Positions 1,751 through 55,173 of a stretch of DNA of 64,000 nucleotides are shown in pieces. The position numbers and the translations under genes were made by a program. A model generated the notes under the pieces. The model was not told the DNA's origin. It was given only the letters and a program-made list of their open reading frames with translations, and did no database searches. Location of the stretch: the IMG/VR virus record IMGVR_UViG_3300028844_006119, positions 78,187 to 142,186 of that record; one strand, written 5' to 3'. The first letter of the stretch is position 1, and each line of letters opens with the position of its first letter. The stretch is from a virus.

Positions 1751-2541
1751 TGTCCTTGTTCAAGGACGAGCAGGCTCATCCATTGATCCTCCTCAGGAAG
1801 TACCTGGGGATGTTCGGCATTGACGCCCTGGAGTGGGAGCCGCCCGTGATCAAGAGCTCGGTAGAGGATGAGACGGGGACTTCAATCGCCCGGATCAACC
1901 TGCTGAAGCTCATGGCCGCCATCGCCGTGGCCAATCACGATTCGTTCTGGAAGGACTGGCAGACGTTCCACTTCCTTACCGCTGCCTTGAACAACAACAT
2001 CCCATCCGCCGCAGTCCTGTCGGATCAGACCGTGGGACAGATGATGACCGCGGTAGACATCGCGAACACCATACGTAAAGACTTGGGGAAGGCCACGTCA
2101 GTGCCTTCCTTTGGGGAGAAAGTCGCTCGGTACATCGCAGCGCAGGCCCTCGAGTCTGGAATTTGGTACCTGCCGTCCCCTCTAGGCTTCGCAAACAAGT
2201 ACTGTGCCGGGCTCATGCAGCGGTGCGGGAGATGCAGTAATGAGGAGGAGCGTCAGGATGACGGGCTCTGTAGTTATTGTACGGAGAGGTACAGCATGGA
2301 CTCCCTGCAGAAGATGGAGCCAGATCCCGACCTGGCAGGGCAATGGGACGCATCTAAGGTGAAGCCTTTTACCCTGCACCCATACGAGGGAGTAAGTCAG
2401 CGCCTGACCGAAGCTCTCACCCATAAGGACGTGGTCCTGGGGGAGACTCAGGATGACATCTGCGCCGCTAAACTGCTGACCGGACTGGAGTACATGAGCT
2501 ATAGAAGGGCTCAACTCAGGTCTCAAGGGGCGACTCAGTGA
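1750..2541 (+). CDS. Hypothetical protein upstream of portal, with CxxC...CxxC
   Basis: TGATG-coupled to previous ORF; CGRC...CSYC. Confidence 0.75.
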   Translation: MSLFKDEQAHPLILLRKYLGMFGIDALEWEPPVIKSSVEDETGTSIARINLLKLMAAIAVANHDSFWKDWQTFHFLTAALNNNIPSAAVLSDQTVGQMMTAVDIANTIRKDLGKATSVPSFGEKVARYIAAQALESGIWYLPSPLGFANKYCAGLMQRCGRCSNEEERQDDGLCSYCTERYSMDSLQKMEPDPDLAGQWDASKVKPFTLHPYEGVSQRLTEALTHKDVVLGETQDDICAAKLLTGLEYMSYRRAQLRSQGATQ

Positions 2542-3503
2542 TTTCCAGCGGCTCCCTCTTTTTCTTCAGCGACGAAATACAAAAGTGTGCAGGCATGCCT
2601 GCGCCTCAGCAAGCGCAGCAACCTGAGAAGAAACAGAGCTTTCTCTCCAGGAACAAGATGACTTTGGGAGCCGGCGCTCTTGCCGCAGGGATGATCCTAA
2701 AGAACCCCCAGGCAGCCTCCAAGTACCTGGGCCAAGTGAAGCAGATGGTCACTAACCCTAAGGCAGCCCTTCAGCGTGGCTGGAGATCTGGCTCATCCAA
2801 CATCACCGGCAAGGTCCCCGGGGCCTCCGAGTCGGCGTCCAAGAGAGTCAGACTGTACAAGGACGTCTTAAGCTCGGCCGAGCAAGGCAAGCTTCAGTCC
2901 GTCAAATCCCTCGACACTATTGGCGCGGGGGGAACTTCTGCGAGAGCTTCGGGCTGGGGAAGCGCGGGTAGGTCGTTCAGTAGAGCAGGACAAGAGCTAA
3001 AGATGTCCCCCGATCTCACTAAGAGAGTGGGAGACATGCAAGCCAAGCTCAAGGCCGGAGAAGAAGTCTCAGAGCAAGCCTTGAAGGGCCTTTATGCTGA
3101 GATTCAGGGTGCTGGAAAGGGCCTTAAGATGAGGAAGGGCCTGTCGTACTATGCCCCTGGAGAGCGTACGATGATGACAGGTCTGGGCACAGGTCTGGGG
3201 GCAACGGCGGGCCTTGAGACCCACGATGCGGAAACAGGACGCAAGAGGGGCGTGGCGGAGCGAGTTGCTCGCGGGACTGTCGGTGCTGCGACTGGCACCG
3301 CGATGTCCTCCCTATTCATGGGACGAGGCGCAAGGCTCAGCAGCAAGAACTTATTCACAGGAAATAGAGGCTCTCTGCTCAGCCAAAAGGGACTTCTGCC
3401 AGTCGCGGCAACGACTCCCCTACTGGTGGGTACTGAGGCCGCTGGGGAGGTCGCGGGGAAGGGCGGAGAGCTGGCCGACAGAGCCTTTGGACAGAAATCA
3501 TGA
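2538..3503 (+). CDS. Leader-bearing (FFSDEIQKCA) basic Gly-rich protein with hydrophobic segments
   Basis: Overlapping GTGA start; leader at aa 9-18; LGAGALAAGMIL and GLGTGLGATAG segments. Confidence 0.75.
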   Translation: MISSGSLFFFSDEIQKCAGMPAPQQAQQPEKKQSFLSRNKMTLGAGALAAGMILKNPQAASKYLGQVKQMVTNPKAALQRGWRSGSSNITGKVPGASESASKRVRLYKDVLSSAEQGKLQSVKSLDTIGAGGTSARASGWGSAGRSFSRAGQELKMSPDLTKRVGDMQAKLKAGEEVSEQALKGLYAEIQGAGKGLKMRKGLSYYAPGERTMMTGLGTGLGATAGLETHDAETGRKRGVAERVARGTVGAATGTAMSSLFMGRGARLSSKNLFTGNRGSLLSQKGLLPVAATTPLLVGTEAAGEVAGKGGELADRAFGQKS

Positions 3504-21795: not shown

Positions 21796-21824
21796 TAGTG
21801 CCTCCTTTTTTGTTAGCAGAGGAC

Positions 21825-21852
21825 TTATGCCTTACAATGGTCCAAACTTTAG
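21825..21852 (-). promoter_or_regulatory. Phage promoter-like motif (ctaaag-N15-GGCATAA), divergent from terminase
   Basis: 30 nt upstream of ATG 21795. Confidence 0.6.
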
Positions 21853-21860
21853 GAGGCCAG

Positions 21861-24627: not shown

Positions 24628-25308
24628 GATCTTACGGAATAGGGCATCTGAGGTCGTAGAGGTCCCTACGTGCTGCCCCTCCAACTCCGGGGCGACGGCC
24701 CCCGCAAGCTCTCCGTAGATAAACGCGCTGATCCGCAACTTTCTTCGGGAGGATGCCAATATTTTGTGGAGCCCCTGCAGCTCCAGGGAAGCCGCATACT
24801 CTGGCCGAGTAACGACAAACCCCATCATCATGGTGCAGAGCCGCAAGAATGTTCTCCAGGGGTGGATATCGGAGGTCTGCCCTGCCATCACTACGAAGTC
24901 ATCCTCGGAGAGCCTGTCGAAGATCTCTACCCACGGAGCGATCTCCGTCGTCTCCCAGGCTCCTCTCTTCGTGTGGGCCACCGCAAACGTATACAGCTCT
25001 GAAGAGTAGGAGGGGCTCAGCCCCAGTGCCGCATCCTTCGCGTCTAAGATTCTAAGGACGACCTCCATGTGCGACTCCAGCCGGCGCACCTTAGAGCGCA
25101 GGCGAATCAGCTCCTGCCTGGAGACGACAGGGGACGCGGAGTCCATGTCTTCTTTCAGGTCCTGGACCTCCTCCGGGCGAAGGTATACGCTCCGGCCCTT
25201 CTTCTCCTTGGACAGCAAGCCTTTTTTGATATAGTTTCTGACGGTCCTGTCGGTTACTGAGAGGAACCTAGCTGCGTCCTGTAGCGTCATCATGTTATCG
25301 TGACTCAT
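24601..25308 (-). CDS. Helix-turn-helix (MerR/excisionase-like) DNA-binding protein
   Basis: MTLQDAARFLSVTDRTVRNYIKKGLL followed by coiled coil. Confidence 0.8.
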   Translation of the reverse strand: MSHDNMMTLQDAARFLSVTDRTVRNYIKKGLLSKEKKGRSVYLRPEEVQDLKEDMDSASPVVSRQELIRLRSKVRRLESHMEVVLRILDAKDAALGLSPSYSSELYTFAVAHTKRGAWETTEIAPWVEIFDRLSEDDFVVMAGQTSDIHPWRTFLRLCTMMMGFVVTRPEYAASLELQGLHKILASSRRKLRISAFIYGELAGAVAPELEGQHVGTSTTSDALFRKILKRGENTA

Positions 25309-25326
25309 CCCTACTCCGGGCGGTTC

Positions 25327-26208
25327 ATGTTTGGTTTAAGCATCACTAAAGACGATCTGAGAGAGCTGGCCTCCTGTGCCGCTACAGATTTTCTTGAGAC
25401 TAAGACCCCGCTCACCGAAGCGGTAGTCAAGGTCGCAAGTGGCTGCGAGAGGGATCTTACCTCAGAACACGTTCGCCGCATCTGTGAGATGACCTATCAC
25501 GACGCGTATGAGAGACTGCACAAGTCTGCCTCGGCTGCCGACAGGTACATTACTTTCGACCCGCCGGACGCGCCTACAGCAATTGGCATGCTTCGGGCTA
25601 AGAAGGTAGAATCCATGCACAAGGCGGCCAGCTTTGCAGGAGCCGGAACCATGATCGATAAGACCGCAAGCGCCCCACACCGGACCAAGTTTCAGGCTGC
25701 GAATGCCTTTGACGCTCTGATGAAGACCGCCTCTGTCGAGGAAGAGGGTGTCGACCATCGATACTTGCACCGTATCCGTCAGGATCTCAAGGAGGCAGTG
25801 GCCTCGGTAAGCTCTGAGCACGCTGGCGTTGTGGTTGCGGCCGACCTGGAGATGGGCTCCCTGATCAAGGAGGCGTACTCCTCCTACCGAGATGGGTACT
25901 CCGTGGAGGAGATCCTGCACGCGTGCTTCTCCGGGGCGGACCTGTCCGAGATCCCTAGATCTGCCTCCGTCAAGGTGGCCTCCATCCTCTCTGCTGAGCT
26001 GGCAAGAAAGGCCGTGAAGACCGCAGGTCTCGGAATCAACAAGACTGCCTCTCTCGGGGAAGTCGATCCTACACACCCGCTGCCCTCCCGCTTTACGAAG
26101 GCGGCGCAGCTAGAGACTGAGCGGGCACATCTGGAGCTTACTCTGTCGGACCTCAAGCGGGACCGGGACGGTTTCCGTAAAAAGGTCGAGTCTCTGTATG
26201 ACCGATAG
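25327..26208 (+). CDS. Head-module protein, very rich in K-x-A-S sites
   Basis: KVAS, KSAS, KAAS, KTAS x3, KEAY, KVAS, KTAG, KAAQ; start codon uncertain. Confidence 0.7.
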   Translation: MFGLSITKDDLRELASCAATDFLETKTPLTEAVVKVASGCERDLTSEHVRRICEMTYHDAYERLHKSASAADRYITFDPPDAPTAIGMLRAKKVESMHKAASFAGAGTMIDKTASAPHRTKFQAANAFDALMKTASVEEEGVDHRYLHRIRQDLKEAVASVSSEHAGVVVAADLEMGSLIKEAYSSYRDGYSVEEILHACFSGADLSEIPRSASVKVASILSAELARKAVKTAGLGINKTASLGEVDPTHPLPSRFTKAAQLETERAHLELTLSDLKRDRDGFRKKVESLYDR

Positions 26209-26491
26209 CCTGCTAACTCCCCAAGTCATGACGGCGTTCTCCGACGAGATCGAGAAGCTCGCCTTCTCCGTAATTGGCCGGGCGGCTAAGGGAGCTGCGG
26301 ACATGGGGTTTAAGGGCGTCGGTTCCGTGGCTAAGGCAGCGGTAAACAACCCCAAAGCGGCTCTCATGGGAACCGCAGCACTCGGCGCAACCGGCCTCGG
26401 GGGAGCCCACGTACTTAAGAAGTCCAGGCAGGGCTTTGAGGCCCAGAGTATGGGCTCTCTTCCTGGCCGGCATGGTACTTTAACCACATAG
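26198..26491 (+). CDS. Leader-bearing (AFSDEIEKLA) cationic Gly-rich peptide precursor
   Basis: Leader aa 13-22; ALMGTAALGATGLGGAHVLKK. Confidence 0.75.
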   Translation: MTDSLLTPQVMTAFSDEIEKLAFSVIGRAAKGAADMGFKGVGSVAKAAVNNPKAALMGTAALGATGLGGAHVLKKSRQGFEAQSMGSLPGRHGTLTT

Positions 26492-26501
26492 GAGTCTAAT
26501 C

Positions 26502-27023
26502 ATGGAAATTCCCGCAGAAGCATACGAGCTTTACGCTCGAGGCGAGATCACTGACCGGGAGATGCACGAGCTTGAGAAGTTCGCAGAGGCTCTCGAGAAG
26601 ACCGCCTTCGATTATGGGAAGGCGGGGCTGATGATGGGCGGAATGGCGCTGGCTGCTCCGGCGCTGGCGTATGCCGCAAACCAGGTCCCTAAGACCTTGC
26701 AGGGTATGGCGAACTCCATGCGCTTCGAGTCCGGCCTAAACAAGGCTCTCGAGATCAACCCGCAGCTCGGTAGTGCTAAGGACCCGAACTTGCGCATGGC
26801 GTACAAGACGCTCCAGACGACCAACCCGGACTACGCCAAGGATCCTCTGATCGCCGGTACCATTCTGGACATGGTCATGTCGAACCGCATGGACCCTGAT
26901 GATCCCGGCAGCGCACCTCGTTTCGACCCGACACTTCTCAATGAGATTCAGAAGAGCGCTCCCAGATCGCCTGACATGACCCAAACCATGGGAAGCGCGG
27001 CAATGACCGCCGCCAAGGGATAG
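26502..27023 (+). CDS. Head-module protein with ELEKFA/LEKTA sites followed by a hydrophobic segment
   Basis: AGGAG RBS; AGLMMGGMALAAPALAYAA. Confidence 0.75.
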   Translation: MEIPAEAYELYARGEITDREMHELEKFAEALEKTAFDYGKAGLMMGGMALAAPALAYAANQVPKTLQGMANSMRFESGLNKALEINPQLGSAKDPNLRMAYKTLQTTNPDYAKDPLIAGTILDMVMSNRMDPDDPGSAPRFDPTLLNEIQKSAPRSPDMTQTMGSAAMTAAKG

Positions 27024-27032
27024 AGGTCTGAT

Positions 27033-29006
27033 TTGGACAAGTACGCGCTATACCCCGGAAAGGCTGCTGACGGCCGGCCCAGAGTTCACCTGGTTGAGCC
27101 GGGTACTGGGTATGGTATGGCCAGTACTGACGGAGTCACCAAGACCGCGTCGGGAGAGCACCTTCCGGAAGTCATGGAGCTTATTGAGTCGATCGAGGCG
27201 CAGCCCGGAAGGCTGTACTTGGTCAACTCAGCTCTGGGTGCTGGGGAGAACGTTGGGTTCAATCTTCGAGGTGACTGGTTCACTGAGAAGGGCCTGAATC
27301 ACACTCCTCCCGGATTCGAGCAGATCCCGGTGTGGGATATCGAAGCGCGGAGAAAAGCCGCAAACATCACAGAGGCTGTGCCTCGGTGGGGGTCTTTGGC
27401 GTGGGGCTACCCTACGTTCTACAACGCGCATAGATTCCGGCACCACGTCAACAAGGACCCAAACAAAGCCTACGGATTCATTCTGGGGGCTTTTTGGGAT
27501 GACCGTATGAAGCGGGTCATCCTGGTGTCTGAGCTGATTAAGACCATGTGCGCCAAGATGGGGGCTCTTGATCTGTACAACCGGATCCAGGGTGGGGACT
27601 TTCCAGACTCCAGCATGGGCAGCAAGGTCCCGTACGACCGATGCGCTATTTGTAACCACCATGCCCGCACACCAATGCAGTATTGTGAGCATGTCCGTAA
27701 GGGAGCTTCTCCTCCCTATGGAATGAAGTCCATGCTCCCGGACGGGCGTATCTGCGGTGTTTACAACGACTACCCGAGATTCTTCGACGATTCATTTGTG
27801 TTTGTCGGGGCCGAGCGATCTGCGAAGGTGATGTCGGATGTCACGAATCAGGTCTCGGGGAGAAACGCGTACTCCCAGAAGATCTACCCGTTCTCGCGCC
27901 CCATCCAGAAGATTGCTTCTGCAGCCGGGGTAGCGGATGTAACTCCTATCTCTGATGCTCCGTCTCCGCAGACGCAGAAGCCGAACATCCCGGACTTTGT
28001 TTTAGAGGAAAAACTTACTCGGGCTGTCCAGCTGATTCCCGTAAGCACCTCTGCTGAGCGAGAGACGCTTAGATTCTTCATGCAAGAGCGCCTAGCGGAG
28101 GAAAGAGTCCGTGCGGGGACAATGTCCTCCACTGAGATGCAGATGTGGAAGGACCTCTCGCGGAACGTATTACTGAGGCAGTACGGGGTCTCCCCAGAGC
28201 AGATGGTCCACCTAAAGGTACTGTTCAACACCCGAGCAAATCAGGTACTTGGGATTACTAAGGTTGCGGAGATGCCCAAGTGGGCAGAGATTCTGAAGAG
28301 AATCCCCGCCCCCTCTCCGGAGCACATGAGCATCGTGCGTAGAGAGGAGAAGTGCCTCCCCGAGATTCCTAGAGAAATCCTGGACGAAATCGCAGATGCT
28401 CCTGGGCCAAATCTCCGTGCTGCAGCACGGATGGGCATCGTGGCCCGTCCCAATGAGTTCCAGTACATCATGCTGCGGCAAAGAGACCCGGACTTAGCGA
28501 GTAGACTCCACACGAATAGAGTGGTATTTCGCCCTACTTCCCTTCGTAGGGAGACATCAGCGTTCAATACGGGCTATGTCCCTCGCGACACTATGCACTC
28601 CATCATCCATAAGTTGGCACCTCTTATAGCCTCACGCTCCTTTGCGCCTTCGGCTATTAGAGCGCGGATCATTAAGATCACGCCCATGCCTAAGATCGCA
28701 GAGTTCTCAGAGACCGAGAACTTGGATGAGGTCTCAGAGCTATACAATCAGTATCGCCTGGGGCTTATGCTATCTCCTACAGACCTCACGGCAGTGACCG
28801 TGCCCTCTGTTTTCTCCGATAGAATCGATGACGATGTGAAAATTGCCGGTGATTCTGTTAGTCTTTCTGCCCTAATGACGAGCCTTGCCTATTGGCCCGG
28901 TTTACAGTTAGGATTAAACTCGGCTGAGGGGTCCTCCTCCGAAGACGCCACCCACTCTCAACCCCATATTGGAGAAATCCATCATGTCACTCCTTACGGA
29001 GCTTGA
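27033..29006 (+). CDS. Putative prohead (maturation) protease with Zn-finger insert
   Basis: Position upstream of scaffold-like and capsid genes; candidate catalytic His (HRFRHH) and Ser (DSSMG) followed by CAIC...C..H; TTG start with GAGG RBS. Confidence 0.5.
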   Translation: MDKYALYPGKAADGRPRVHLVEPGTGYGMASTDGVTKTASGEHLPEVMELIESIEAQPGRLYLVNSALGAGENVGFNLRGDWFTEKGLNHTPPGFEQIPVWDIEARRKAANITEAVPRWGSLAWGYPTFYNAHRFRHHVNKDPNKAYGFILGAFWDDRMKRVILVSELIKTMCAKMGALDLYNRIQGGDFPDSSMGSKVPYDRCAICNHHARTPMQYCEHVRKGASPPYGMKSMLPDGRICGVYNDYPRFFDDSFVFVGAERSAKVMSDVTNQVSGRNAYSQKIYPFSRPIQKIASAAGVADVTPISDAPSPQTQKPNIPDFVLEEKLTRAVQLIPVSTSAERETLRFFMQERLAEERVRAGTMSSTEMQMWKDLSRNVLLRQYGVSPEQMVHLKVLFNTRANQVLGITKVAEMPKWAEILKRIPAPSPEHMSIVRREEKCLPEIPREILDEIADAPGPNLRAAARMGIVARPNEFQYIMLRQRDPDLASRLHTNRVVFRPTSLRRETSAFNTGYVPRDTMHSIIHKLAPLIASRSFAPSAIRARIIKITPMPKIAEFSETENLDEVSELYNQYRLGLMLSPTDLTAVTVPSVFSDRIDDDVKIAGDSVSLSALMTSLAYWPGLQLGLNSAEGSSSEDATHSQPHIGEIHHVTPYGA

Positions 29007-29937
29007 ATCACGGGGCGTCACAGCTGAGGATCTTGAGAAAGCGGCATCTGTCCGTTTATTTGAGAAGGCTGCTGCCGCCGAAGACGTGGATCTCGGCTCA
29101 CTTGATGAAAATCAGGTAGAAGACCTCTACGTCACATTCCTTTCCAACCAGTCCAATGATGACTACACAAAAGAGGCTTCCGCCATGAACGACGAAATCG
29201 TTGACCTTTTCGAAAAGACCGCTGCAGCCGAGGGCATTGACCTCGACGACATGGCGGACCACGAGCTTGCTGAGCTCTACAACCACTACGTTGAGAACGT
29301 TCTGCCCGAGCAGGTCGAAGAGTACGAGAAGGGTGCTTCGTACGAGGTCGACGAGGCCACCGAGAAGCTCGCTGAGGCCGAGATTCTCGGTCGCCACATG
29401 GCGCGTGCCTACATGGATGAGTTCGACAAGGAGGCTGCGAGCGCAGCAGCGGCCGGTGCCAGACTGGACGCTGCTGCGGCCGAGGCCGGACGATGGGGCC
29501 AGTCGGGCAAGGTCGAGGCGCAGAACGCCGCGAACCGTGCCAAGGAATCGATTGGACGAGGCTACGAGTCTGCCAAGGCGAAGGGCAAGGCTGGCTATGA
29601 AGCTGGTGTCCGTGGTGCTAAGGCCACTGGTGCCGCAGTTGCTTCCGGTGCTCGGTCCTACGGCAATGCTATGACTGGTAAGCAGTTGCGAGAGGCTGTC
29701 TCCACCATGCGTAAGCAGAAGGGTGGATATCGATCTTCCGCAATGGGCCGCGGTAAGGCCCTTCGTGGCGGTGCCAAGACGCTAGCCGCATGGGGCGCAA
29801 CCGGTGCAGCTGGCTACGGCGCCAAGAAGGGCTACGACAGGATGACCAAGAAGTCCTCGATTGACGAGATCATTGAGGACCGCGCCAACGAGCTTCTCGG
29901 AGAGTTCCTCTTCGAGAGCGGTGTCGAGCTGGACTGA
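28984..29937 (+). CDS. Acidic scaffold-like protein with internal repeat and inserted cationic cassette
   Basis: GGAG RBS; repeats LFEKAAAAEDVDL...LY / LFEKTAAAEGIDL...LY; basic block between FDKEA and KKSS. Confidence 0.7.
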   Translation: MSLLTELESRGVTAEDLEKAASVRLFEKAAAAEDVDLGSLDENQVEDLYVTFLSNQSNDDYTKEASAMNDEIVDLFEKTAAAEGIDLDDMADHELAELYNHYVENVLPEQVEEYEKGASYEVDEATEKLAEAEILGRHMARAYMDEFDKEAASAAAAGARLDAAAAEAGRWGQSGKVEAQNAANRAKESIGRGYESAKAKGKAGYEAGVRGAKATGAAVASGARSYGNAMTGKQLREAVSTMRKQKGGYRSSAMGRGKALRGGAKTLAAWGATGAAGYGAKKGYDRMTKKSSIDEIIEDRANELLGEFLFESGVELD

Positions 29938-29945
29938 GAGTGGAA

Positions 29946-30227
29946 ATGCCTGCCAACACAGACATCATGAGATTCTTCTCAGACGAGATCTGTAAGTTGG
30001 CAGGCATGCCCGCACTCAAGGTTCCGGGCATGGGCAGTAAGGGACAACTATCTTCATTGATGGCCCGACCTGCCCATGCCCAGGCCGGTAACTTCGCAAA
30101 AGCACAAAAAGCACTGAAAACACCCACCACAGGAAGCGCCCCGAAAGGGATTAATCATGCTTCGTTAAAGGCGGTGGGCTCCACGGGATCTGTATCTTTA
30201 CCGCCACCTCCCGTGAAAACCGTCTAA
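29946..30227 (+). CDS. Leader-bearing (FFSDEICKLA) basic low-complexity peptide precursor
   Basis: No D/E after the leader; start 29940 or 29946. Confidence 0.7.
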   Translation: MPANTDIMRFFSDEICKLAGMPALKVPGMGSKGQLSSLMARPAHAQAGNFAKAQKALKTPTTGSAPKGINHASLKAVGSTGSVSLPPPPVKTV

Positions 30228-30251
30228 ACTTCCCACTTTTAGGGTGACCCA

Positions 30252-30992
30252 ATGAGCAACTACCGAAGCATGATTGATGACGCACTCCAGAGTGCAAGAG
30301 CCCGTATCGATGGCGGCAGCGCAGATCTGATGAAGACCGCTTCTGCCCCCGAGAACAGCATGGTCAAGGAGGCGTCCGAACTCGCAGACGCCCTTGAGTA
30401 TGTTGCCCACGCCTCTACGAACACTGGCTCCGCCGCTGACGCTGTTCGTGGCGAAATGGTTCGTTCCTTCTTTAAGAGCGCGGCAGGCGCTCCTGCCCAG
30501 AGCAGCACATCTGTTCAGGGCACCCAGGCACACGCCCCCACTGGAAAGAAGATCCAGGCAAAGGGCCAGTCTGTCGGAGGCTCGGCTCCTCAGTCGGAGA
30601 CCACTCCCGCCCCCGCAGATGGCCAGAAGCCGCTGCTCGAGTCCTTCAAGCAGGCAGAGGGTCAGTCTCTCTACGACATCCTGATGGCCAGTAAGACCGC
30701 AGGCAAGGGTGGCCCCTCCGAGAGCACGGCTACTGAGTCTGCTCAGGGCATTCCTTCTGGTAACGAGAACTCCAACCGTCAGGCGATTCTCGAGAGCAAC
30801 GAGGCTCCGGTCAACGCGACCCGCCGTCAGGCTAAGGCTCCCGTCCGTAAGCGCCTCGCGGAGGCGTTTGCCCACACGAACAGCACCACTGGCGACTCCA
30901 CGCTGAATGCAATGTTCCCTCAGGCCGCAGGTAAGGGATCCCACAAGATCGCCTCCGTGAAAGATCGGCTGAGCGCAATGGCTGGTGAGTAA
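30252..30992 (+). CDS. Head-module (scaffold/core-like) protein, K-x-A rich
   Basis: KTAS, KEAS, KSAA, KQAE, KTAG, KIAS. Confidence 0.75.
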   Translation: MSNYRSMIDDALQSARARIDGGSADLMKTASAPENSMVKEASELADALEYVAHASTNTGSAADAVRGEMVRSFFKSAAGAPAQSSTSVQGTQAHAPTGKKIQAKGQSVGGSAPQSETTPAPADGQKPLLESFKQAEGQSLYDILMASKTAGKGGPSESTATESAQGIPSGNENSNRQAILESNEAPVNATRRQAKAPVRKRLAEAFAHTNSTTGDSTLNAMFPQAAGKGSHKIASVKDRLSAMAGE

Positions 30993-31299
30993 TATGTCCT
31001 CTATTAGAGACAGGCTTGAGAAGATCGCTGCTGCCAAGGACGATAAGGGTGACCTCGCCCTTTATGTCTCTAAGAAGCTCTCGGAGAAAAGAGCATCCGT
31101 TGCGGAGTACTCTGTGCTCTTCGATAAGGTTGCCTCCGGTGACCTAGGAGAGCACACCCGTCAGGCCCTACTCGGCATCTGCGACACGATCCCAGAACCC
31201 ACTACTCTTTCGGAAAAGACAGCATCTGTGTATGATGTTATGGACTTTTCTGAGAATGACGCAAGAAGAGCTAGACTAGATCAGCTCCTAAAGCGTTAA
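30985..31299 (+). CDS. Small head-module protein, K-x-A rich
   Basis: EKIAA, EKRAS, DKVAS, EKTAS; start 30985 or 30994. Confidence 0.7.
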   Translation: MSNMSSIRDRLEKIAAAKDDKGDLALYVSKKLSEKRASVAEYSVLFDKVASGDLGEHTRQALLGICDTIPEPTTLSEKTASVYDVMDFSENDARRARLDQLLKR

Positions 31300-31323
31300 A
31301 CTTCCTTCCGCCGGAGAATTAAC

Positions 31324-31689
31324 ATGATGAAGATCGGGAATGCACAGCTTGCTGCTGTCTCCGCAAAGGGGGCGGCGACTATCCGTACTCTGGTGGAGAA
31401 AGTCGCTAGCTTGGAGACGGAGAACGTCTCCCTCCGAACAAAACTAGCTTCTATTGCGCGCGACTCTCAGATCTCTGAGCTTGCACGCGAGATGGAAGAC
31501 AAGAGCCTTAATGTTGACATGACTTTCGAAGAAAAGGTTGCACACCTGCGGGGTCAGGCAAACCTAGAGAACGTCACTGAAGCAGTAAAGATGGCGAGCG
31601 CGGGCCATGTCCGACTTGCCGATGTTTCCGACCATCCCGGGACGGGAGCGATCGACCCACTCACCTCTTTCTGCCTTTCCGGCGAATAA
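31324..31689 (+). CDS. Coiled-coil head-module (scaffold-like) protein
   Basis: GGAG RBS; EKVAS, TKLAS, EKVAH, VKMAS. Confidence 0.75.
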   Translation: MMKIGNAQLAAVSAKGAATIRTLVEKVASLETENVSLRTKLASIARDSQISELAREMEDKSLNVDMTFEEKVAHLRGQANLENVTEAVKMASAGHVRLADVSDHPGTGAIDPLTSFCLSGE

Positions 31690-41000: not shown

Positions 41001-42349
41001 TGCTGAGCTTCAACGATGTGACCACGATGATTGCGGCCATTGGCCCGGTCAGCACGGACAACCCGTTGGCTCTTGCCTGCTTCCTGCAGCTCTCGAACGC
41101 TCCCAGTCAGTCGGTCTCGGCTCTGGGCCTCAGCGAGACTTCCGCCGCCGCACCCCTGGGTTCGGTGACGGCACATGCAGAGGCTCTGGACTTCCTGGAG
41201 GCTAAGGAGGTCTACGCAATCGCTCCTCTGACGGATGATGGATTCGTTCATCAGCTGTACGCGACGCACGTAGAGTCCATGTCCGCTCCTTCCGAGCGGG
41301 GTGAGCGCATCGCCATCGTGTGGGCTCCGCAGCCTACCCGTGACACGGATGACTCCATCCAGTCCGGCACAGACGCGGAGACCAACGGCACCGACAGCTC
41401 AGTGACTCTGGGAAGCAACCCAGTCAGTGCCATCATCGGTGCGGGCGCCTCGGATGTTTCCGCTCTCACCGTGGCGGACGGCATCTACATGGAGGTGGTC
41501 ATCGTCAGCCTCGGGTCTACCGAGGTCCGAAACTACAGCCTCTCGTCTCAGACCGGCGTGATCAGTGCCTTCCGCACTTCTTTCGCCTCGGGCGAGAATG
41601 ACGATGGCTTCTACTCGACCACCGCATTGGATGGAGATGCTGGGTACACCAGCATGACCTACGCTATTCGTAAGCGTGGGGAACTCCTGTTGGTGACGGG
41701 AACGACCATCCCCGACTATGGGGCGATTGCAACCGCCGCCGCCGCGACTGGAGCTTCTTACGCCAGCCGTCGTGTCTTCCATGTCTACTGTGACTCGGTC
41801 GATACTTCGATCGACGGTGTTGTGACCAACGTGCCCGGCTACTACACCTGCGCTGCGATCACCGGCATGATTGCTGAGCAGCCTCCGCAGCAGCCCTTTA
41901 CTCGCCTGTCCATGACCGGTTTCTCCAAGGTGTACGGCTCTGACGACACCTTCAGCGAGAACCAGATGGACACTATCGCTGATGGGGGTCGGTACATCCT
42001 CATCAACCAGGGTGGTCGGATCGCATCCCGCCACCAGAGGTCTACCGCGAGTACCAGTATCGAGGCTCGTGAGCTCTCGATTACTAAGGCGATTGACTAC
42101 CTGGCCAAGGGTCTTCGGGCCACGAACCGGGTGTACATCGGTCGTTACGTCATCAACCCCGGATTTATCGACCAGCTGGTCATGTCGAACGAGGGTTTCC
42201 TCGCTCGCACCGTCCAGTCGGGCGTGGTGAACTCCGCCGCACTTAAGAGCGTGCTCCAGGATGAGAGTGCGCCCGATACAGTCCTCATTGAGGTCGAGGT
42301 TGCCCCGGCCTACCCCTGCAACAAGATTCGAATCACCATCGTTTCGTAA
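38036..42349 (+). CDS. Contractile tail sheath protein with very large inserted domain array
   Basis: N-terminal RPGVIVVQE...PVVVG; C-terminal RELSITKAIDYLAK..R...YIG...IEVEVAPAYPCNKIRITI. Confidence 0.85.
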   Translation: MASETRPGVIVVQELSETPAAVSAPTLVPVVVGPCYQIVEALESDGSLNADAQYADEQYNQVALAIPQADLPDPRSNITEVNIDESQVGLSLYFGGLLATVARGSNSSTGSSFLKGVNLCAKPAIFTDEVSGTYDFTSYGDAGALLTLAFDLPSSSVTSNDVTITFTGSMTATEVADAINGAVGADVAEVVDSTNSYGISSFTSAAYELVLIYTAGFGATSNITVRANGSALAVLFTGLSTSVDHRIEGAGFRGEDDDDGDLTTPWIEWHRGAYKFGTPGTALTGNASADDAFNTSGGPGPSAADFVGLIDLNGAYTGSKATDVTFTGSAPVVPLSAATTTLEGDEFWGDGSQVGDGVITVVEQRRFKVGVLDNALSTFDGNGDPTSAVYTTLEVNTPSHGTPFSPKYSYFVANNLVYGEVTPEGTAAAVTGSITGLAPQSATVYTSTVSSSWLTAMPATDVLLSGGTLTIQITEDGVQGDEVTFNFAEGAAHAGAYATVAEIAADLTSGFDGVTVTAFDSDGDGEDDSLVFQTTKTGSDQSISVKTTGTNSIASSLGITSTLTGTGKDYEFAEQAIITGDYITVPLPSDQSAAIEFTVVDSFGTHTFDAGAAATTALADLDALGQAISGDTSHASGVYSVNLNATSGGFEVATLYFIDEDGDVITNPVGALNGRMVIKTTQGGSSVDVSVDSTDDTDLILLGFTDTGFAAELSGDVVDGSSILVNTAGDTLTVYDGTTTWTFTASGDITTAAALVAALNDDAEAQWGGDAAAVTAAAHFFVVPQSVVGTNQIGVRLINGGTLTLGGTQTQSLTGGADDSVAAASNTDTGVDELSGTRLAFTLDENPYVYEIDFTSNSLDDGVTLINTTIGGSSDIASESGGALALTSSFAGAASRVTIDDTTTAEVTNDNAEDAGTVLGVTSGDSTGSGRPNPDFYQDGSGTVYVGANILRNRSTGVPYSLASALADIYFDYVGLRLDVSPAAADPALLSFNDVTTMIAAIGPVSTDNPLALACFLQLSNAPSQSVSALGLSETSAAAPLGSVTAHAEALDFLEAKEVYAIAPLTDDGFVHQLYATHVESMSAPSERGERIAIVWAPQPTRDTDDSIQSGTDAETNGTDSSVTLGSNPVSAIIGAGASDVSALTVADGIYMEVVIVSLGSTEVRNYSLSSQTGVISAFRTSFASGENDDGFYSTTALDGDAGYTSMTYAIRKRGELLLVTGTTIPDYGAIATAAAATGASYASRRVFHVYCDSVDTSIDGVVTNVPGYYTCAAITGMIAEQPPQQPFTRLSMTGFSKVYGSDDTFSENQMDTIADGGRYILINQGGRIASRHQRSTASTSIEARELSITKAIDYLAKGLRATNRVYIGRYVINPGFIDQLVMSNEGFLARTVQSGVVNSAALKSVLQDESAPDTVLIEVEVAPAYPCNKIRITIVS

Positions 42350-44158: not shown

Positions 44159-44401
44159 ATGAATAAGATCGCAATGTACGAAGAGCTGCTCGAAAATCAC
44201 CCTCTCTGGAGCAAAGAAGGAGGCATTAGTTCGGGGCTGAAGGCCCTGAAGGCCTCCGGTCTGAAGGCCTCCGGTCTGAAGGCGGGGACGGCTAAGAAGA
44301 TGCTTGCAGCACGACCGATGTCGCAGGGGGGGTCGCAGAGATGGATGATGAAGAGCACACCATCGCTGAGGCAGAATGTCGGGTCTCTTTTCAAGAGGTA
44401 G
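44159..44401 (+). CDS. Leader-bearing (MNKIAMYE...KEG) small basic peptide precursor
   Basis: AAGGAAG RBS; same N-terminus as 12755..13177; 15-nt tandem repeat gives (LKASG)2. Confidence 0.7.
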   Translation: MNKIAMYEELLENHPLWSKEGGISSGLKALKASGLKASGLKAGTAKKMLAARPMSQGGSQRWMMKSTPSLRQNVGSLFKR

Positions 44402-44408
44402 GTAAGCG

Positions 44409-44696
44409 GTGGATCTTGAAGTCCTACATTTCTTCTCTGATGAGGTGGAGAAGACTGCGTCTGGCCCGTGGAATCAGAACGCTGGCGCGTTCGCAAGTGT
44501 CGCCGGGGAGCTGGACGATGGCGGCGGGTTCACTGTCTCTGATCTTCGGAAGTACCTGCGCTACCCACAGTCGCGATCCTCAGTTCAGCGACCTACTAAG
44601 CCTACGGTGATGTGGACCTCCTCGGATGCAGAGGACTGGCTCATCTTCAGCCCAAACAAGCACCGGGCGTTTGTTCGCTGGGCTAGAGGCAAATGA
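44409..44696 (+). CDS. Leader-bearing (LHFFSDEVEKTA) small protein
   Basis: GTG start with AGGT RBS; leader nearly identical to next gene. Confidence 0.7.
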   Translation: MDLEVLHFFSDEVEKTASGPWNQNAGAFASVAGELDDGGGFTVSDLRKYLRYPQSRSSVQRPTKPTVMWTSSDAEDWLIFSPNKHRAFVRWARGK

Positions 44697-44740
44697 TGGA
44701 TCTCGAAGTCTTACATTTCTTTTCTGATGAGGTGGAGAAG
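44409..44740 (+). repeat. 45-nt direct repeat encoding the shared leader (44409..44453 and 44696..44740)
   Basis: 41/45 identical; differences are the start codon and three synonymous positions. Confidence 0.9.
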
Positions 44741-44941
44741 CTCGCAGCGAAGAGTCGGCACAACTACTACATGCGGAATCGTAATCAGATTCTGCAGAAG
44801 CAGCGTCAGTACCGAGCCAAGAACAAGGCCGGTATTGCACGCAGGCAGAAGATGTACCGGCGGAAGGTAAAGATGGGCGCGCATAGACAGCGTAAGCGCA
44901 TCTCTACGGGCCACTCCTACACCTACGGCGGGTACAGATAG
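44693..44941 (+). CDS. Leader-bearing (LHFFSDEVEKLA) protamine-like Arg/Lys-rich peptide precursor
   Basis: 64 aa after the leader: 21 K/R, no D/E. Confidence 0.75.
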   Translation: MMDLEVLHFFSDEVEKLAAKSRHNYYMRNRNQILQKQRQYRAKNKAGIARRQKMYRRKVKMGAHRQRKRISTGHSYTYGGYR

Positions 44942-45876
44942 TGGATGTCCCTGACCTATTCGACCAGAAGAGGAAGAAGGTCTCTGGGCTAAAGATGCCC
45001 AGGCAGTTTACTCCGCGGTTACCCGGCGCATCCACTAAGGGGCAGGCTCCCATAAACCCGTTCTCAGGAAATAAGATGAAGGTCGCATCCCTGTCTTCTT
45101 TCCGAGAAGCTCAGCTCATAAAGACTGCCTCTGCGGAAGACGCTCATCTCTACTTTGAGATGTGCAAGCTTGCGGATACTGGGGATGAGCTTAAGATTCG
45201 CATGTTCCTAGCGCAGCATCCTGAGATGGAGAAAGACGCTGGGATCATCGGCCACGGCTTCAGGCTGCTGAGTAAGGCCCTGGGAGGGGCAGGTAAGACT
45301 TTCAACAGTAGCCGCTTGACTGCCGCCGCAGGCAAAGCTGAATACGCAGCAGCAAAAAGGTTCAGCGGGGCGGCGGTAAATCCTAGAAACCTAGGGCAGG
45401 CCGCTAAGGAAACCCAGTACGCCTCTCTAGCGGGAGCTTCTGGTAAGCGGGGAGGGGAGCTCACCGCTGCCGCAAAAAACATCCGAGAAGCCAAAGCCGT
45501 CAAATCTCAGGTAAATGCTGGGCAGTTTGCTGCACCTGCTGCGGCTCCTGCTCCCTCTAACGTCGTCCCTGGCGCCCCTTCCGCGTTTAAGGGACAGCCG
45601 GACAAATATGTAAAGGCATATGCGGACGTCGGGGATGAGACAGCTAAGAGGACCCTGGCCGGCAGAGTAAGTGAGAAGCAGCTCGAAGCTGTCGCGAAGA
45701 CCGCTCCTACTCCTAAGACGGAGCTGCTCTCGAACAGTACTCTCGGCAAGGCCATCGTGGGCACGGCCGCCGTAGGCGGGGTCGGGGCTGTGGGCTACGG
45801 AGGCTACAAGGGCGTTCAGCGCGGAAAGGCGCAGAACCTGCAGCAGCAGGCTCGCGGGTTCAACTACGGGATGTAG
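44941..45876 (+). CDS. K-x-A protein with cationic amphipathic/Gly-zipper cargo
   Basis: KVAS, KTAS, KLAD, MEKDA|GIIGHGFRLLSKALGG; C-terminal GTAAVGGVGAVGYGGYK. Confidence 0.75.
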   Translation: MDVPDLFDQKRKKVSGLKMPRQFTPRLPGASTKGQAPINPFSGNKMKVASLSSFREAQLIKTASAEDAHLYFEMCKLADTGDELKIRMFLAQHPEMEKDAGIIGHGFRLLSKALGGAGKTFNSSRLTAAAGKAEYAAAKRFSGAAVNPRNLGQAAKETQYASLAGASGKRGGELTAAAKNIREAKAVKSQVNAGQFAAPAAAPAPSNVVPGAPSAFKGQPDKYVKAYADVGDETAKRTLAGRVSEKQLEAVAKTAPTPKTELLSNSTLGKAIVGTAAVGGVGAVGYGGYKGVQRGKAQNLQQQARGFNYGM

Positions 45877-46178: not shown

Positions 46179-48029
46179 TCATCGGCCCATGTGTGACTCA
46201 ATCATAACCCGAGCGCTCTCTTCGAGGGCCTTGGGCAGATCGGGTACGGTTGCTACAAGCCCGTAGCGCCCCACACCAAAGGCATTGTCGTAGTAGTCAG
46301 AGTTCTGAGATCCAATGCCCAGAATCGATACCACGATCCCATCTACTCGCATCTCCCGAAGGACTGCGTGAAGGTCTTCTACGGCGTTCCCGGTGCTTCT
46401 CCGCCCTCGGCAGCTAGTCGGGAACCCGTCTGTAATCATCAAGACGGCCCTATCTGTCTTGGCCGTCTTGGCCCATTCCCAGGCGGCATCCAAGGCCTGG
46501 ACCATAGAGGTCATCCCCATTGTAAGTCCGGGGACGTTCTTTGGGCTGCCCACCTTGGAGAAGAAGAAGAGCTCGGAAGAGAACCCCCAGAGCTGAAGTC
46601 GGACATTCACTCCCTTGCAGGCAAAGTCGATATTAGCGACTGCCTGGTCCAGGAGGTCCATGCCCCACCCAGCCATGGACCCGGACACGTCCATCAGGAC
46701 CAACAGGTCCATGCCTCCGTACTTACGAGTCTCCTTAAAGAGCTTGGTCGTAGAAAACGAGTTCGAGATCTTTGCGTTGATCACGGACTCAATGTCCAGG
46801 TCTTGCCCTGTCCAGGCCCTACGCATCTCCTTCTTCATCTTCACGTTCTCGAGATGCCTGCGCATGCGGGCCGCCCGAGGCGTGGGACTAGGAAGTCTCT
46901 GGGAGGGGGTGACCATAGATCCCCGAATGCCGGAGACCTTGGCTGCAGACAGGAGGATGTCCTCTTGCCCACGCTTTCGGCTCTTCTTAGCCTTCCCCAG
47001 CTCCTTCTTGGCTACCTGAATTCGGGAGAACATCTTCTCAGTCCCGCTCTTTAGGAGCTTCTCCAGGGAAGAGTCTTCCTTCGAGCCGTCCTTTCCGGTC
47101 TTGCTGTCATCGTCCTTGGCTGTCATCAGCTTCTGGATCTCAAGCAGCTTCTTGGCGGAGACCTTCTTCTTCCTCTTCCTGCCAGTAGGGTCATTCTCGG
47201 GCTGGAGGTCTTTCCCTCCAAGTGGATTGTCCTCGTTATCCCCGTGGCCTTTTCCCGAATCTCCCATGTTGGAGATGGCCTTGTTCAGCAGGTCCAGCTT
47301 CATCTGCTGCTGTTGCTGTCGGGTGCTGTTTTGCTGCGGATCTGGCGGGAACTGCTTCAACAGCTCATCGGCGATGTCGTCGACTAGGCGGGACGTAAGG
47401 GCAATACACGCCTTGTTGTCTACAAGCTCTACTCTCGAGCGAGCAATCTTCATATGCTTGGCACATGCCTTGAACTCATCGGGAGCGCCAGGGGTCTCCA
47501 CCCCGGCAGCGATTCTTCCCAGGTAGGAGATCAAGTCCTTCTCAGCCTGATCCTCCATGTCGTTTGCCGCAATGTCATGCCATCTCTGCCGAAGAAGGTC
47601 TGCACCTCCAGCGTACAGTTCTCCCCACACCGAACAGCACCGCCAGTCCTCCAGGACGTTCCACAGGTGATGAACCAGGCCCTCCAGCTTAGCTGTATAG
47701 GGAATGGCGTCCGGGTGGGTCTTGGGAATGCTGGCTTTCTTCAGTAGCCGCTCTACCGCCTTCTCACGGAAAGCCTCCGTCAGCTCGAGGTCTGTGCCCC
47801 CGAATGGGTGGCTGATCTCATGCTCCAGGATGAGGTATGCCTCCGGGTCTTGGAGAGGCACCCGGAAGAATGTGGCGCAGTCTGTGCTTCCAGACGGGGC
47901 ATTGACCAGGTCAAAGTCCTTCCCCATCATCTTAGAGAAGGTGGCCGTGAGGATCTGCATACGTTCCAGCAGTTCCCCAGGCGTCCCTCCCATTGCCCCC
48001 AGGTCGAGGGGGGTTCGATTACCAGTCAT
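46179..48029 (-). CDS. VWA-domain protein with N-terminal HExxH metallopeptidase-like motif (CobT/MoxR-partner type)
   Basis: HEISH...NVLEDWR; MIDAS DVSGSM; MITDGFP; ILGIG. Confidence 0.85.
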   Translation of the reverse strand: MTGNRTPLDLGAMGGTPGELLERMQILTATFSKMMGKDFDLVNAPSGSTDCATFFRVPLQDPEAYLILEHEISHPFGGTDLELTEAFREKAVERLLKKASIPKTHPDAIPYTAKLEGLVHHLWNVLEDWRCCSVWGELYAGGADLLRQRWHDIAANDMEDQAEKDLISYLGRIAAGVETPGAPDEFKACAKHMKIARSRVELVDNKACIALTSRLVDDIADELLKQFPPDPQQNSTRQQQQQMKLDLLNKAISNMGDSGKGHGDNEDNPLGGKDLQPENDPTGRKRKKKVSAKKLLEIQKLMTAKDDDSKTGKDGSKEDSSLEKLLKSGTEKMFSRIQVAKKELGKAKKSRKRGQEDILLSAAKVSGIRGSMVTPSQRLPSPTPRAARMRRHLENVKMKKEMRRAWTGQDLDIESVINAKISNSFSTTKLFKETRKYGGMDLLVLMDVSGSMAGWGMDLLDQAVANIDFACKGVNVRLQLWGFSSELFFFSKVGSPKNVPGLTMGMTSMVQALDAAWEWAKTAKTDRAVLMITDGFPTSCRGRRSTGNAVEDLHAVLREMRVDGIVVSILGIGSQNSDYYDNAFGVGRYGLVATVPDLPKALEESARVMIESHMGR

Positions 48030-48372
48030 TTTCTTTCTTCATCCTCTCCTTAATTGCCCCAGCGATTGCCCAGGCCTTTGGCTTGCGCCGGTAGCTGATG
48101 ACGGTCCAGTGCCCCATGGGGGCATCGGACTCGAGCATGGACGTCACATCCTCCGTGTACTGCTCCTGGGCCTCCGCCTCGCACTGTCGGAGTAGCTTAC
48201 TGCTCCTTCGAGACCGCTCCATTCTGCGAAGTTCGCCCTCCAAGAGATACTCCGCTTCCTCCTCTACGCAGGTGTTGAGATACTGAAGGACCGAGTCCAT
48301 GTCGGCCTTCCTTGCCCGGTTGGTGAACCACCCGGTCAGCTCTTCGAAAGTACCGAACATGCGGGCTCCCAT
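48019..48372 (-). CDS. Hypothetical protein between AAA and VWA genes
   Basis: Overlaps both neighbours in an operon arrangement. Confidence 0.6.
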   Translation of the reverse strand: MGARMFGTFEELTGWFTNRARKADMDSVLQYLNTCVEEEAEYLLEGELRRMERSRRSSKLLRQCEAEAQEQYTEDVTSMLESDAPMGHWTVISYRRKPKAWAIAGAIKERMKKENDW

Positions 48373-54558: not shown

Positions 54559-54984
54559 TCACAGCCCGAGAATGTGGGTAGCCGCAGGCCCTGCGGTGTC
54601 CTTTACCTTGCCGTACCACTCCCCGAATAGGTGGCTCGGCACATTCTGTTCCCAGTACGTGGCCATATCCGCCACTCTGGGGTTCTTTTTGATTGCCGGG
54701 ATAAGGGATTTTGCTGCTTCTGCCTTACCTAGGCCCTTAGCGGTCGCCATGGCGAACTCCGGCCCCATCGCTAAGACTTCTGGTCGGGCAGCATTGTGGG
54801 CTGCCGTGTTCAATCTGTTCACTCTCTCTGGGTTCAGCGCCCCGCCGGGGCCGAACAGCTTCCCGTATCCCCTAGCCGTGCTGCCTCGGATACCTGGAGA
54901 GTTCCAGTGTTTTACGGCAAAGCCTGGGCTGATGGCCTGCTTCTCAAGCTCGTCCCTAAAGAAGTGAAGGACATCGGGGTGCAT
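54559..54984 (-). CDS. Leader-bearing (VLHFFRDELEKQA) protein; start may be further upstream (ORF open to 55164)
   Basis: Leader matches 44409/44693 at VLHFF.DE.EK.A; AAGGAAGG before ATG 54984. Confidence 0.65.
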   Translation of the reverse strand: MHPDVLHFFRDELEKQAISPGFAVKHWNSPGIRGSTARGYGKLFGPGGALNPERVNRLNTAAHNAARPEVLAMGPEFAMATAKGLGKAEAAKSLIPAIKKNPRVADMATYWEQNVPSHLFGEWYGKVKDTAGPAATHILGL

Positions 54985-55173
54985 CCCTTCCTTGTCGAAG
55001 AGGACCAGCTCATCCTTCACGATGGTCCCGTTCTTCTCCTTCTGTACCCGCGCAGCGCCTTTGCCGTTCACTTGGGACCTGCCTGCACGCAAAGACTTTC
55101 TGCCTCTGGGGGTTGCGACCTCTGAGAAGGAGGAGCTGGAAGATTGGTACATGCCGGTCCTCAAGTTTTAGCT

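Follow-up and report, generated by a model that had tools for sequence, protein, structure and literature searches.

Duplicated leader segments at the start of two adjacent genes with unrelated bodies in an uncultured tailed phage

A leader repeated on two neighboring genes

The region described here belongs to an uncultured tailed phage, whose genome is represented by a single viral contig of 142,186 bp with a GC content of 57% (IMG/VR record IMGVR_UViG_3300028844_006119). We analyzed the right part of this contig, a stretch of 64,000 nucleotides (positions 78,187 to 142,186 of the record) hereafter called the window. Among a series of small genes downstream of a tail tube-like gene, two adjacent genes, p95 and p82, begin with an almost identical segment, the leader, and continue into bodies that are unrelated to each other (Table 1). 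The body of p95 spans 243 nt, and its stop codon overlaps the start codon of p82 (T-G-A-T-G). By direct comparison, the two leaders (44409-44453 and 44696-44740, both on the plus strand) are identical at 41 of 45 nt. The start codon (GTG vs. ATG) and three third-codon positions account for the differences, and the 15 encoded residues are the same in both, exactly as stated in an original prediction made from the letters of the window alone.

Gapped local alignment delimits the repeat to 44 nt (44410-44453 and 44697-44740, 41/44 identical), while a repeat search extends the pair to 54 nt at 87% identity, thereby taking in an A-G-G resembling a Shine-Dalgarno (SD) sequence upstream. Given the composition of the window, approximately 5e-12 such pairs are expected by chance, and in a self-blastn of the 142,186-bp genome the leader pair is the top internal repeat (E = 7e-11, with the runner-up at E = 0.009). 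The likeness at the DNA level ends directly after the AAG lysine codon, the following 65 nt matching at chance level, and the alanine found two codons past this lysine in both genes is common to them at the protein level only. This agrees with the predicted end of the similarity at a K-x-A site. The bodies, likewise predicted to be unrelated, gave no BLASTP alignment at E ≤ 100 when compared with each other, and blastn and tblastx searches with the p95 body matched only itself.

The prediction had also named an assembly artefact as a possible source of the repeat. The Logan assembly of SRR5204267 (L012) is 100% identical to the window over 6288 nt, both leader copies included, and the longest exact run inside the repeat is 18 nt. 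Since such a run is too short to mislead an assembler and the second assembly is identical, an artefact is very unlikely.

Table 1. Features of the p95/p82 locus, leader copies and structural genes in the 64,000-nt window.
Feature	Position	Strand	Remarks
Tube-like gene, 232 aa	43450..44148	+	Conserved left anchor of the variable small-gene region
p80, small basic gene with the second leader type	44159..44401	+	In L016, an 87-aa orthologue immediately precedes that of p82
Leader copy 1, GTG start, 15 codons to Lys15	44409..44453	+	Holds the ancestral leader position
p95: leader copy 1, K-T-A-S and a 78-80 aa ORFan body, isoelectric point (pI) 10	44409..44696	+	
Insertion of 287 bp compared with L016 (p95 body and leader copy 2)	44454..44740	+	Three-way DNA comparison with L016, L017 and L019
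Leader copy 2, ATG start	44696..44740	+	
p82: leader, K-L-A and a 64-aa highly basic body (+21, pI 11.8)	44696..44941	+	
p311, mosaic, Gly/Ala-rich, with internal helix and K-x-A units; right neighbor	44941..45876	+	Orthologues of 112 to 645 aa
Leader on a 321-aa basic open reading frame (ORF), 2538-3503	2538..2591	+	26 bits with the leader hidden Markov model (HMM); body pI 10.4
Leader on a 97-aa basic ORF, 26198-26491, head module	26198..26263	+	HMM 25 bits; body pI 11.2
Leader on a basic ORF of ~93 aa ending at 30227, head module	29946..30002	+	HMM 15 bits in round 1, 26 in round 2; pI 11.5
Leader in ORF 54559-55164	54934..54984	-	HMM 26 bits
Head block, scaffold-like proteins rich in K-x-A-[A/S/G]	25300..31689	+	Nine proteins
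Predicted prohead maturation protease, 657 aa: assemblin/gp21-fold N-domain (residues ~42-288) and long C-terminal extension	27033..29006	+	phrog_18299, E = 9.6e-5
Terminase	21798-23585		Pfam GpA_ATPase
Major capsid protein	32346-33482		Weak match
Sheath-like protein, 1437 aa	38036-42349	+	Weak Phage_sheath_1C match
Single-chain beta-beta' RNA polymerase, 2112 aa	6420-12758	+	Pfam

The empty site in a close relative

For the comparison with relatives we used 11 IMG/VR loci containing the tube-like gene, to which four further contigs (L016-L019) were added. The tube-like gene is 86-91% identical in seven loci (L001-L006 and L010) and 66-69% identical in three others. A p82 orthologue with leader follows the tube-like gene in seven of the 11 tube-anchored loci, and the interval between the two varies from 3 nt to approximately 1 kb of differing small genes, for which reason we regard it as a variable region. 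A protein search identified 19 p82 orthologues at 60-91% identity, while a tblastn search of GenBank phages with p82 gave no match.

In the closest relative found, L016, the tube gene is followed by an orthologue of p80, a single GTG-started leader fused straight to the p82 body, and an orthologue of p311. Compared base by base with L016, p95 matches at 57/60 nt upstream of the leader, at 43/45 within it and at only 17/65 behind it, whereas the corresponding values for p82 are 19/60, 41/45 and 62/65. The window therefore corresponds to an L016-like ancestor with 287 bp inserted exactly after the lysine codon of the leader and flanked by DNA that is ~95% identical to L016. The repeat makes the placement ambiguous, and the insertion may equally well be bounded at 44410-44696. 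No p95 homologue was found in the 11 tube-anchored loci or in L016-L019 using tblastn, tblastx and blastn.

Comparison across relatives had been proposed as a check on the idea that the leader is a module, and it bears this out: the leader is kept throughout the p82 orthologues, and where L016 has an empty site with one leader-p82 gene the window has two genes, with the new cargo and a second leader placed at the module boundary. The further claim that the leader moves onto new cargo holds in a modified form, as new cargo came to stand behind the resident leader and the old cargo was given a copy; the leader did not hop onto an existing gene. A tandem duplication of a whole gene with subsequent divergence of the bodies, which the prediction had listed as the competing explanation, would suit two neighboring genes that share a strand and are much alike in size. 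Against it, the bodies lack similarity as protein or as DNA in any frame, and the p95 body, which matches neither the p82 body nor anything else, lies between flanks still close to those of L016; to this origin and the assembly artefact combined we give practically no credence.

Residue 13 adds to the picture. Both window leaders carry valine (GTG) at this position, while L016 and most orthologues carry leucine. This shared derived residue makes the window copies each other's closest relatives, either by duplication within the lineage or by later conversion.

Age of the duplication and selection on the leader

By Nei-Gojobori counting, the leader pair differs at 3 of 8.0 synonymous sites (proportion of synonymous differences, pS, 0.38) and at 0 of 34 non-synonymous sites, and the chance that three random changes would all be silent is ~0.006. 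The p82 bodies of the window and L016 have a pS of 0.32, which is similar and would make the event about as old as the split from L016. The duplication thus appears to date roughly to that split and not to be fresh. The description "recent" in the original prediction consequently holds in a relative sense only: p95/p82 is the youngest leader duplication within the genome, all other leader pairs having diverged in their DNA (at most 32/51 identical), while its age lies near that of the L016 split.

It could also be imagined that the two-gene state is ancestral, that gene conversion keeps the leaders alike, and that L016 and the other relatives have lost p95 by recombination between leaders. Such recombination between 44-nt direct repeats would remove exactly the p95 body and one leader, giving an L016-like structure, and the pS of the leader pair is indeed not below the divergence between the window and L016. 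However, p95 is missing from every relative examined, across p82 identities of 60-91% and several local arrangements, so that repeated losses would be needed. Furthermore, an L016-like deletion product should have Val13, but L016 has leucine as do the outgroups, which calls for a reversion at codon 13, and no p95 homologue exists among 5.8 billion proteins searched. We therefore consider an ancestral pair very improbable.

When polarized by L016, two of the silent changes, in addition to the start codon change, fall in the p82 copy and one in the p95 copy. Since the changes are mostly in the p82 copy, they mainly restate the constraint on the leader of p82. Across the orthologues, the leader has a ratio of non-synonymous to synonymous differences (pN/pS) of ~0.3, which is like that of the body, and its synonymous sites are near saturation, ruling out a DNA- or RNA-level cause of the conservation. 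Residues F8, F9, D11, E12 and K15 are invariant in 20 sequences. In the alignment of p82 orthologues, every indel is located in the linker immediately behind K-L-A-x, and the basic body is conserved to the C-terminus. Taken together, these patterns point to selection acting on the leader at the peptide level. As regards the substitution-rate check suggested beforehand, it is thus the orthologues that bear out selection; for the new gene, the argument from synonymous-only divergence is weaker than predicted and gives no independent evidence of selection on the copy of p95.

Coding potential of p95

A search among the 5.8 billion proteins returned p95 itself only, and the same was true for its body when compared with the whole genome and all fetched loci by blastn, tblastx and tblastn, leaving no donor. 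Neither p82 nor p95 had a match above threshold in Pfam or PHROGs. With a codon-usage score of 0.25, the annotated frame of p95 is the best of the six; among true 80-codon windows this value ranks at the 10th percentile, and it is exceeded by 4% of the wrong-frame windows. The ESM Atlas model of the protein has a predicted local distance difference test (pLDDT) score of 0.41, no look-alikes and no feature match. At the same time, p95 keeps the ancestral start and SD region, and the stop/start overlap makes the two genes look like a translationally coupled pair.

These data have to be weighed against the possibility that the insertion is real and p95 non-functional, i.e. that foreign or scrambled DNA has been tolerated since a start and a leader were restored for an essential p82, the frame being fortuitous or a transient proto-gene. 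The absence of homologues, the poor model and the low percentile of the coding score would all suit this, as would the facts that an open frame of 80 codons has a chance of ~5% at the GC content of the phage (an estimate from base composition) and that a single polarized silent change can be assigned to the p95 leader. Conversely, the annotated frame outscores the other five and nearly all wrong-frame windows, the overlap and the gap-free packing resemble those of a coupled gene, the body is basic as in the five other cargos, and start, SD region and leader are all intact. We regard a non-functional p95 as unlikely, albeit a possibility to be taken seriously; in the reading favored below, p95 would be newly recruited and possibly newborn cargo.

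A family of leaders and a second leader type

An HMM built from the window copies was scanned over the genome in two rounds. Six clear leaders were identified in the window (Table 1), with the consensus h-h-x-F-F-x-D-E-h-x-K-x-A and a length of 15-17 residues, and no copy in the remaining 78 kb. All six bodies are mutually unrelated and basic, with pI values of 10.0-11.8 and net charges of +4 to +23, in a genome where 17 of 153 proteins have a pI of at least 10. The leaders themselves are acidic (-1 to -4). Further copies, again on differing bodies, occur in the relatives L001-L006, L008 and L013. In addition, an exact-motif scan of IMG/VR with the coding pattern F-F-S-D-E-h-E-K-x-A gave two stretches, namely L013, already known as a relative, and L014. 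The latter has F-F-T-D-E-L-E-K-F-A internal to two paralogous small proteins (3304-3360 and 4457-4510) on an unrelated contig, and was judged coincidental.

The minus-strand copy differs in its setting between genomes. In the window, a good ribosome-binding site and an ATG are found immediately ahead of the leader in ORF 54559-55164 (-), while in L013 (~5578, -) a start codon is lacking in the vicinity of the leader, which sits behind approximately 45-60 residues ending in K-T-A. Judging from this arrangement, the leader can also lie inside a protein, as a module bounded by two K-x-A sites.

A second leader type, M-N/D-K-I-A-x-Y-E ... H-P-L-W and usually then K-x-A, also heads differing bodies. 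It was found in the window at 44159-44224 (p80) and 12755-12820 (ORF 12755-13177), in L001 (6709 and 7495), in L003 (6709) and in L019. On the latter contig, second-type leaders (435-488 and 1002-1055) head the genes on either side of p82; they are identical at 44 of 54 nt and 16 of 17 residues and are followed by unrelated bodies. A comparable situation is seen for the first leader type in L008, where three tandem genes (4362-5396; 70, 149 and 131 aa) each have an F-x-S-E-L-E-K-h-A leader and differing bodies, two of the leaders being identical at 12 residues yet showing many silent differences. L008 and L019 thus represent independent repeats of the phenomenon, and indicate that reassortment of leaders and cargo is habitual in this clade.

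A predicted prohead protease and its candidate cleavage sites

The head module of the phage includes a gene (27033..29006) whose product had no match by sequence in Pfam or in a profile search of PDB sequences. The AlphaFold2 (AF2) model of its N-domain (27033-27932) has a pLDDT of 82, the first 41 residues being disordered. Using VIA-align, the best match was T4 gp21 (5jbl_A), with Z = 9.1 and a root mean square deviation of 2.9 Å over 133 residues, followed by 34 herpesvirus protease entries (Z = 8.6-5.2), with unrelated folds appearing from Z = 4.3. Foldseek pointed weakly in the same direction (best E = 0.012), so that the relationship became clear only after structural re-alignment. On the basis of the model, the phage is predicted to encode a prohead protease of the gp21/assemblin fold. 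The family comprises 2279 representative sequences of 138 to 1497 aa. An alignment of 25 members (33-78% identity) shows no variation at His138 and Ser194, which are spaced by 56, presumably close to the value in T4 gp21. Also invariant is a cysteine cluster (C204, C207 and C218), suggesting a metal site, and the C-terminal extension is long and variable.

Within the same 25 sequences, K-x-A is positionally conserved both before the protease domain (19/25) and behind it (18/25), as would be expected of self-processing sites. The extended motif K-x-A-[A/S/G] occurs 33 times in the head block against 5.7 expected, i.e. an approximately six-fold enrichment, with a maximum of 12 in 300 shuffles. 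No copy occurs in the sheath or tube proteins, and elsewhere in the genome the motif is slightly in excess (78 vs. 55). Near the N-terminus of the major capsid protein, K-x-A-A is conserved in the window and four relatives. As for p82, its AF2 model (pLDDT 74) has a leader helix (residues 3-16), a break over K-L-A (17-20) and a basic helical hairpin (21-71). Herpesvirus assemblins cleave after alanine at x-x-A|S/T sites, i.e. x-x-A followed by serine or threonine (PMC4498786), and a cut after the alanine of K-x-A is therefore a reasonable guess.

Proposed history and function of the leader

The reading that we favor, with moderate confidence, is that the 287-bp insertion gave new cargo the resident leader and p82 a copy of it, and that the leader is a capsid-targeting propeptide cut by the prohead protease. 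The ancestor was organized as L016, i.e. p80 followed by a single gene composed of the acidic helical leader and the basic 64-aa p82 body. In the lineage of the window, a 287-bp segment was then added exactly at the junction between leader and body. The novel 80-codon p95 body thereby came to stand behind the resident leader, which kept the GTG start and the upstream junction, and the old p82 body behind a second leader copy, with an ATG overlapping the p95 stop. Mechanistically, the leader may have been duplicated within the lineage while new sequence was captured; alternatively, a double crossover may have occurred inside the leaders of a donor with tandem leader genes. An in-lineage origin or later conversion is favored because Val13 is common to both copies.

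In functional terms, the leader would direct basic internal proteins, DNA-associated and probably ejected, into the prohead core, where a protease of the gp21/assemblin fold would remove it at K-x-A, probably after the alanine. Any ORF placed behind the leader would in this way be delivered into the virion, and the leader would serve both as an address tag and as a homology patch for cassette exchange. Packaging, cleavage, the scissile bond and a docking partner are things that we infer; the head-enriched motif, the protease with its flanking sites and the p82 model together support, and do not prove, a targeting propeptide that is removed from basic internal head proteins by the protease. For p82, the sequence suggests that it is probably a DNA-associated internal virion protein.

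Several observations weigh against this interpretation. The p95/p82 pair adjoins the tail sheath and tube genes and not the head module. The leader of the minus-strand gene is internal, not N-terminal, in the L013 orthologue, and the enriched K-x-A-[ASG] form is not seen in two of the six leaders, whose ends read K-L-A-F and K-Q-A-I. To these may be added the points already raised on p95, i.e. that it has neither a homologue nor a traceable donor, that it has no confident predicted fold and a modest coding score, that just one silent change can be credited to its leader, and that an open frame of its length could arise by chance at the probability given above.

The location of the pair can also be explained by a shared leader module with some other role, such as loading of the tail tube lumen (as do the payload signals of extracellular contractile injection systems, eCIS), chaperone binding, or masking of charge until cleavage. 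The genes p80, p95, p82 and p311 come immediately after those for sheath and tube, and an acidic leader on a basic body suits charge masking well. On the other hand, three other copies of the leader are found in the head module, two of them within the block beside the protease and scaffold-like proteins, the leader ends in a motif that is enriched in head proteins only and flanks the protease domain, and the basic, DNA-binding-like cargo fits the interior of a capsid. Such other roles accordingly strike us as quite improbable compared with targeting to the capsid.

Going beyond the targeting propeptide itself, the leaders could be portable landing pads. Any sequence recombining between two copies would be expressed, packaged and delivered to the next host, and the clade would keep testing new and even de novo peptides as injected effectors, e.g. 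anti-defense factors, with p95 caught at birth and the empty site preserved in a sister genome. We put this forward as a speculation that is rather doubtful in its full extent.

Comparison with known systems

The closest parallel is found in T4. According to a passage of PMC3012670 (citing Repoila et al. 1994), the internal proteins (IPs) of T-even phages are highly diverse, sharing just the capsid targeting sequence (CTS), through which they become encapsidated in the scaffolding core. The CTS on IPI, IPII and IPIII (Mullaney & Black 1996; Repoila et al. 1994, both as cited in PMC3012670) is, like the leader described here, a short N-terminal segment that constitutes the sole conserved part of unrelated, small and mostly basic proteins. 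The leader of T4 ends at the motif of the prohead protease, as the present one is predicted to do with K-x-A. In both cases, a protease of the gp21/assemblin fold is present, and the locus is variable between close relatives, with new ORFs behind the same leader. The differences are equally clear. The two leaders have no sequence similarity and differ in length (~10 residues in T4 vs. 15-17 here), and the T4 site is L/I-x-E as opposed to the predicted K-x-A, probably cut after the alanine, the leader consensus having no L/I-x-E terminus. Whereas T4 has one IP locus, the genes here are spread over the head module, the vicinity of the tube gene and the minus strand, and have at least two leader types. 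The leader thus seems to be CTS-like in its logic and not homologous to the CTS of T4. This is not a new principle; by analogy, it would be the logic of T4 executed with an unrelated leader.

In giant phages of the phiKZ and SPN3US type, the prohead protease removes propeptides of inner-body and ejection proteins at S/A/G-x-E. Like the present phage, where removal is predicted, they have many head and internal proteins whose removable N-terminal propeptides end in one short motif, and they encode a gp21-like protease, families of paralogous cargo and, among the structural genes, an RNA polymerase. They differ in the motif and the leader sequence, the leader being no homologue of their propeptides, and the present phage has a smaller genome (142 kb) and a single-chain beta-beta' fusion instead of split subunits.

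The herpesvirus assemblin (pUL26) resembles the phage enzyme in its protease fold, at the Z scores given above, in its C-terminal extension and in the candidate self-cleavage sites flanking the domain. Its x-x-A|S/T specificity parallels K-x-A followed by serine, alanine or glycine, but lysine at P3 is not a known feature of the herpesvirus site, nor are herpesviruses known to use a leader-tagged set of cargo of this kind. Finally, the payload signals of eCIS, including those of the PVC type, are N-terminal tags common to diverse payload genes downstream of sheath and tube, and four genes follow the tube gene here. These signals are longer, have no head protease motif and load the lumen of the tube, while the copies and the motif of the present leader are tied to the head module, where other leader copies are located and in whose proteins the terminal motif of the tag is enriched.

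Protein-injecting phages disarm host defenses, and the growth of such repertoires is known mainly from T4. The present case adds an uncultured clade, unrelated in sequence, with a different leader and an apparently different protease specificity (K-x-A). As the filled and the empty site are both known, the exchangeable unit is bounded to the nucleotide, and p95 provides a natural example of an ORFan gaining a putative delivery signal. For the introduction of foreign proteins into capsids, the leader offers itself as a candidate tag, and K-x-A is the cleavage rule predicted for a protease family of more than 2000 representative sequences.

Neighboring genes

The tube-like gene to the left of the pair has a remote tblastn match to a protein of Salmonella phage Arash that is annotated as structural. 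Among GenBank phages, its matches are limited to Arash and three Vibrio phages at merely 27-28% identity, which is too remote for use. Further upstream, the final ~90 residues encoded by 38036-42349 weakly match a sheath C-terminal domain; if this is a sheath protein, it carries approximately 1000 residues of insertions rich in Thr, Ser, Gly and Asp.

To the right, the orthologues of p311 (in L001-L006, L016 and L017) are mosaics of a conserved N-terminal part (G-L-K-M-P-R ... N-P-F), helix and K-x-A units, and Gly/Ala-rich segments. Residues 56-120 of p311 match a gene in L001 and L003 that bears the second leader type.

The ORF at 6420-12758, situated among structural genes, has strong Pfam matches to the beta (Rpb2_6, 1e-65) and beta' (Rpb1 domains 2, 3 and 5) subunits of RNA polymerase in the cellular order, and its product may be a packaged single-chain polymerase of the multisubunit type. 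Another pair of genes, conserved in all close relatives, is located beside the variable region. It consists of a von Willebrand factor A (vWA) domain protein (46179-48029, -), with a D-x-S-x-S motif resembling a metal ion-dependent adhesion site and a weak VWA_CoxE match, and an adjoining AAA ATPase (48336-49229, -) of the MoxR/CobS-like type (phrog_249, 7e-26).

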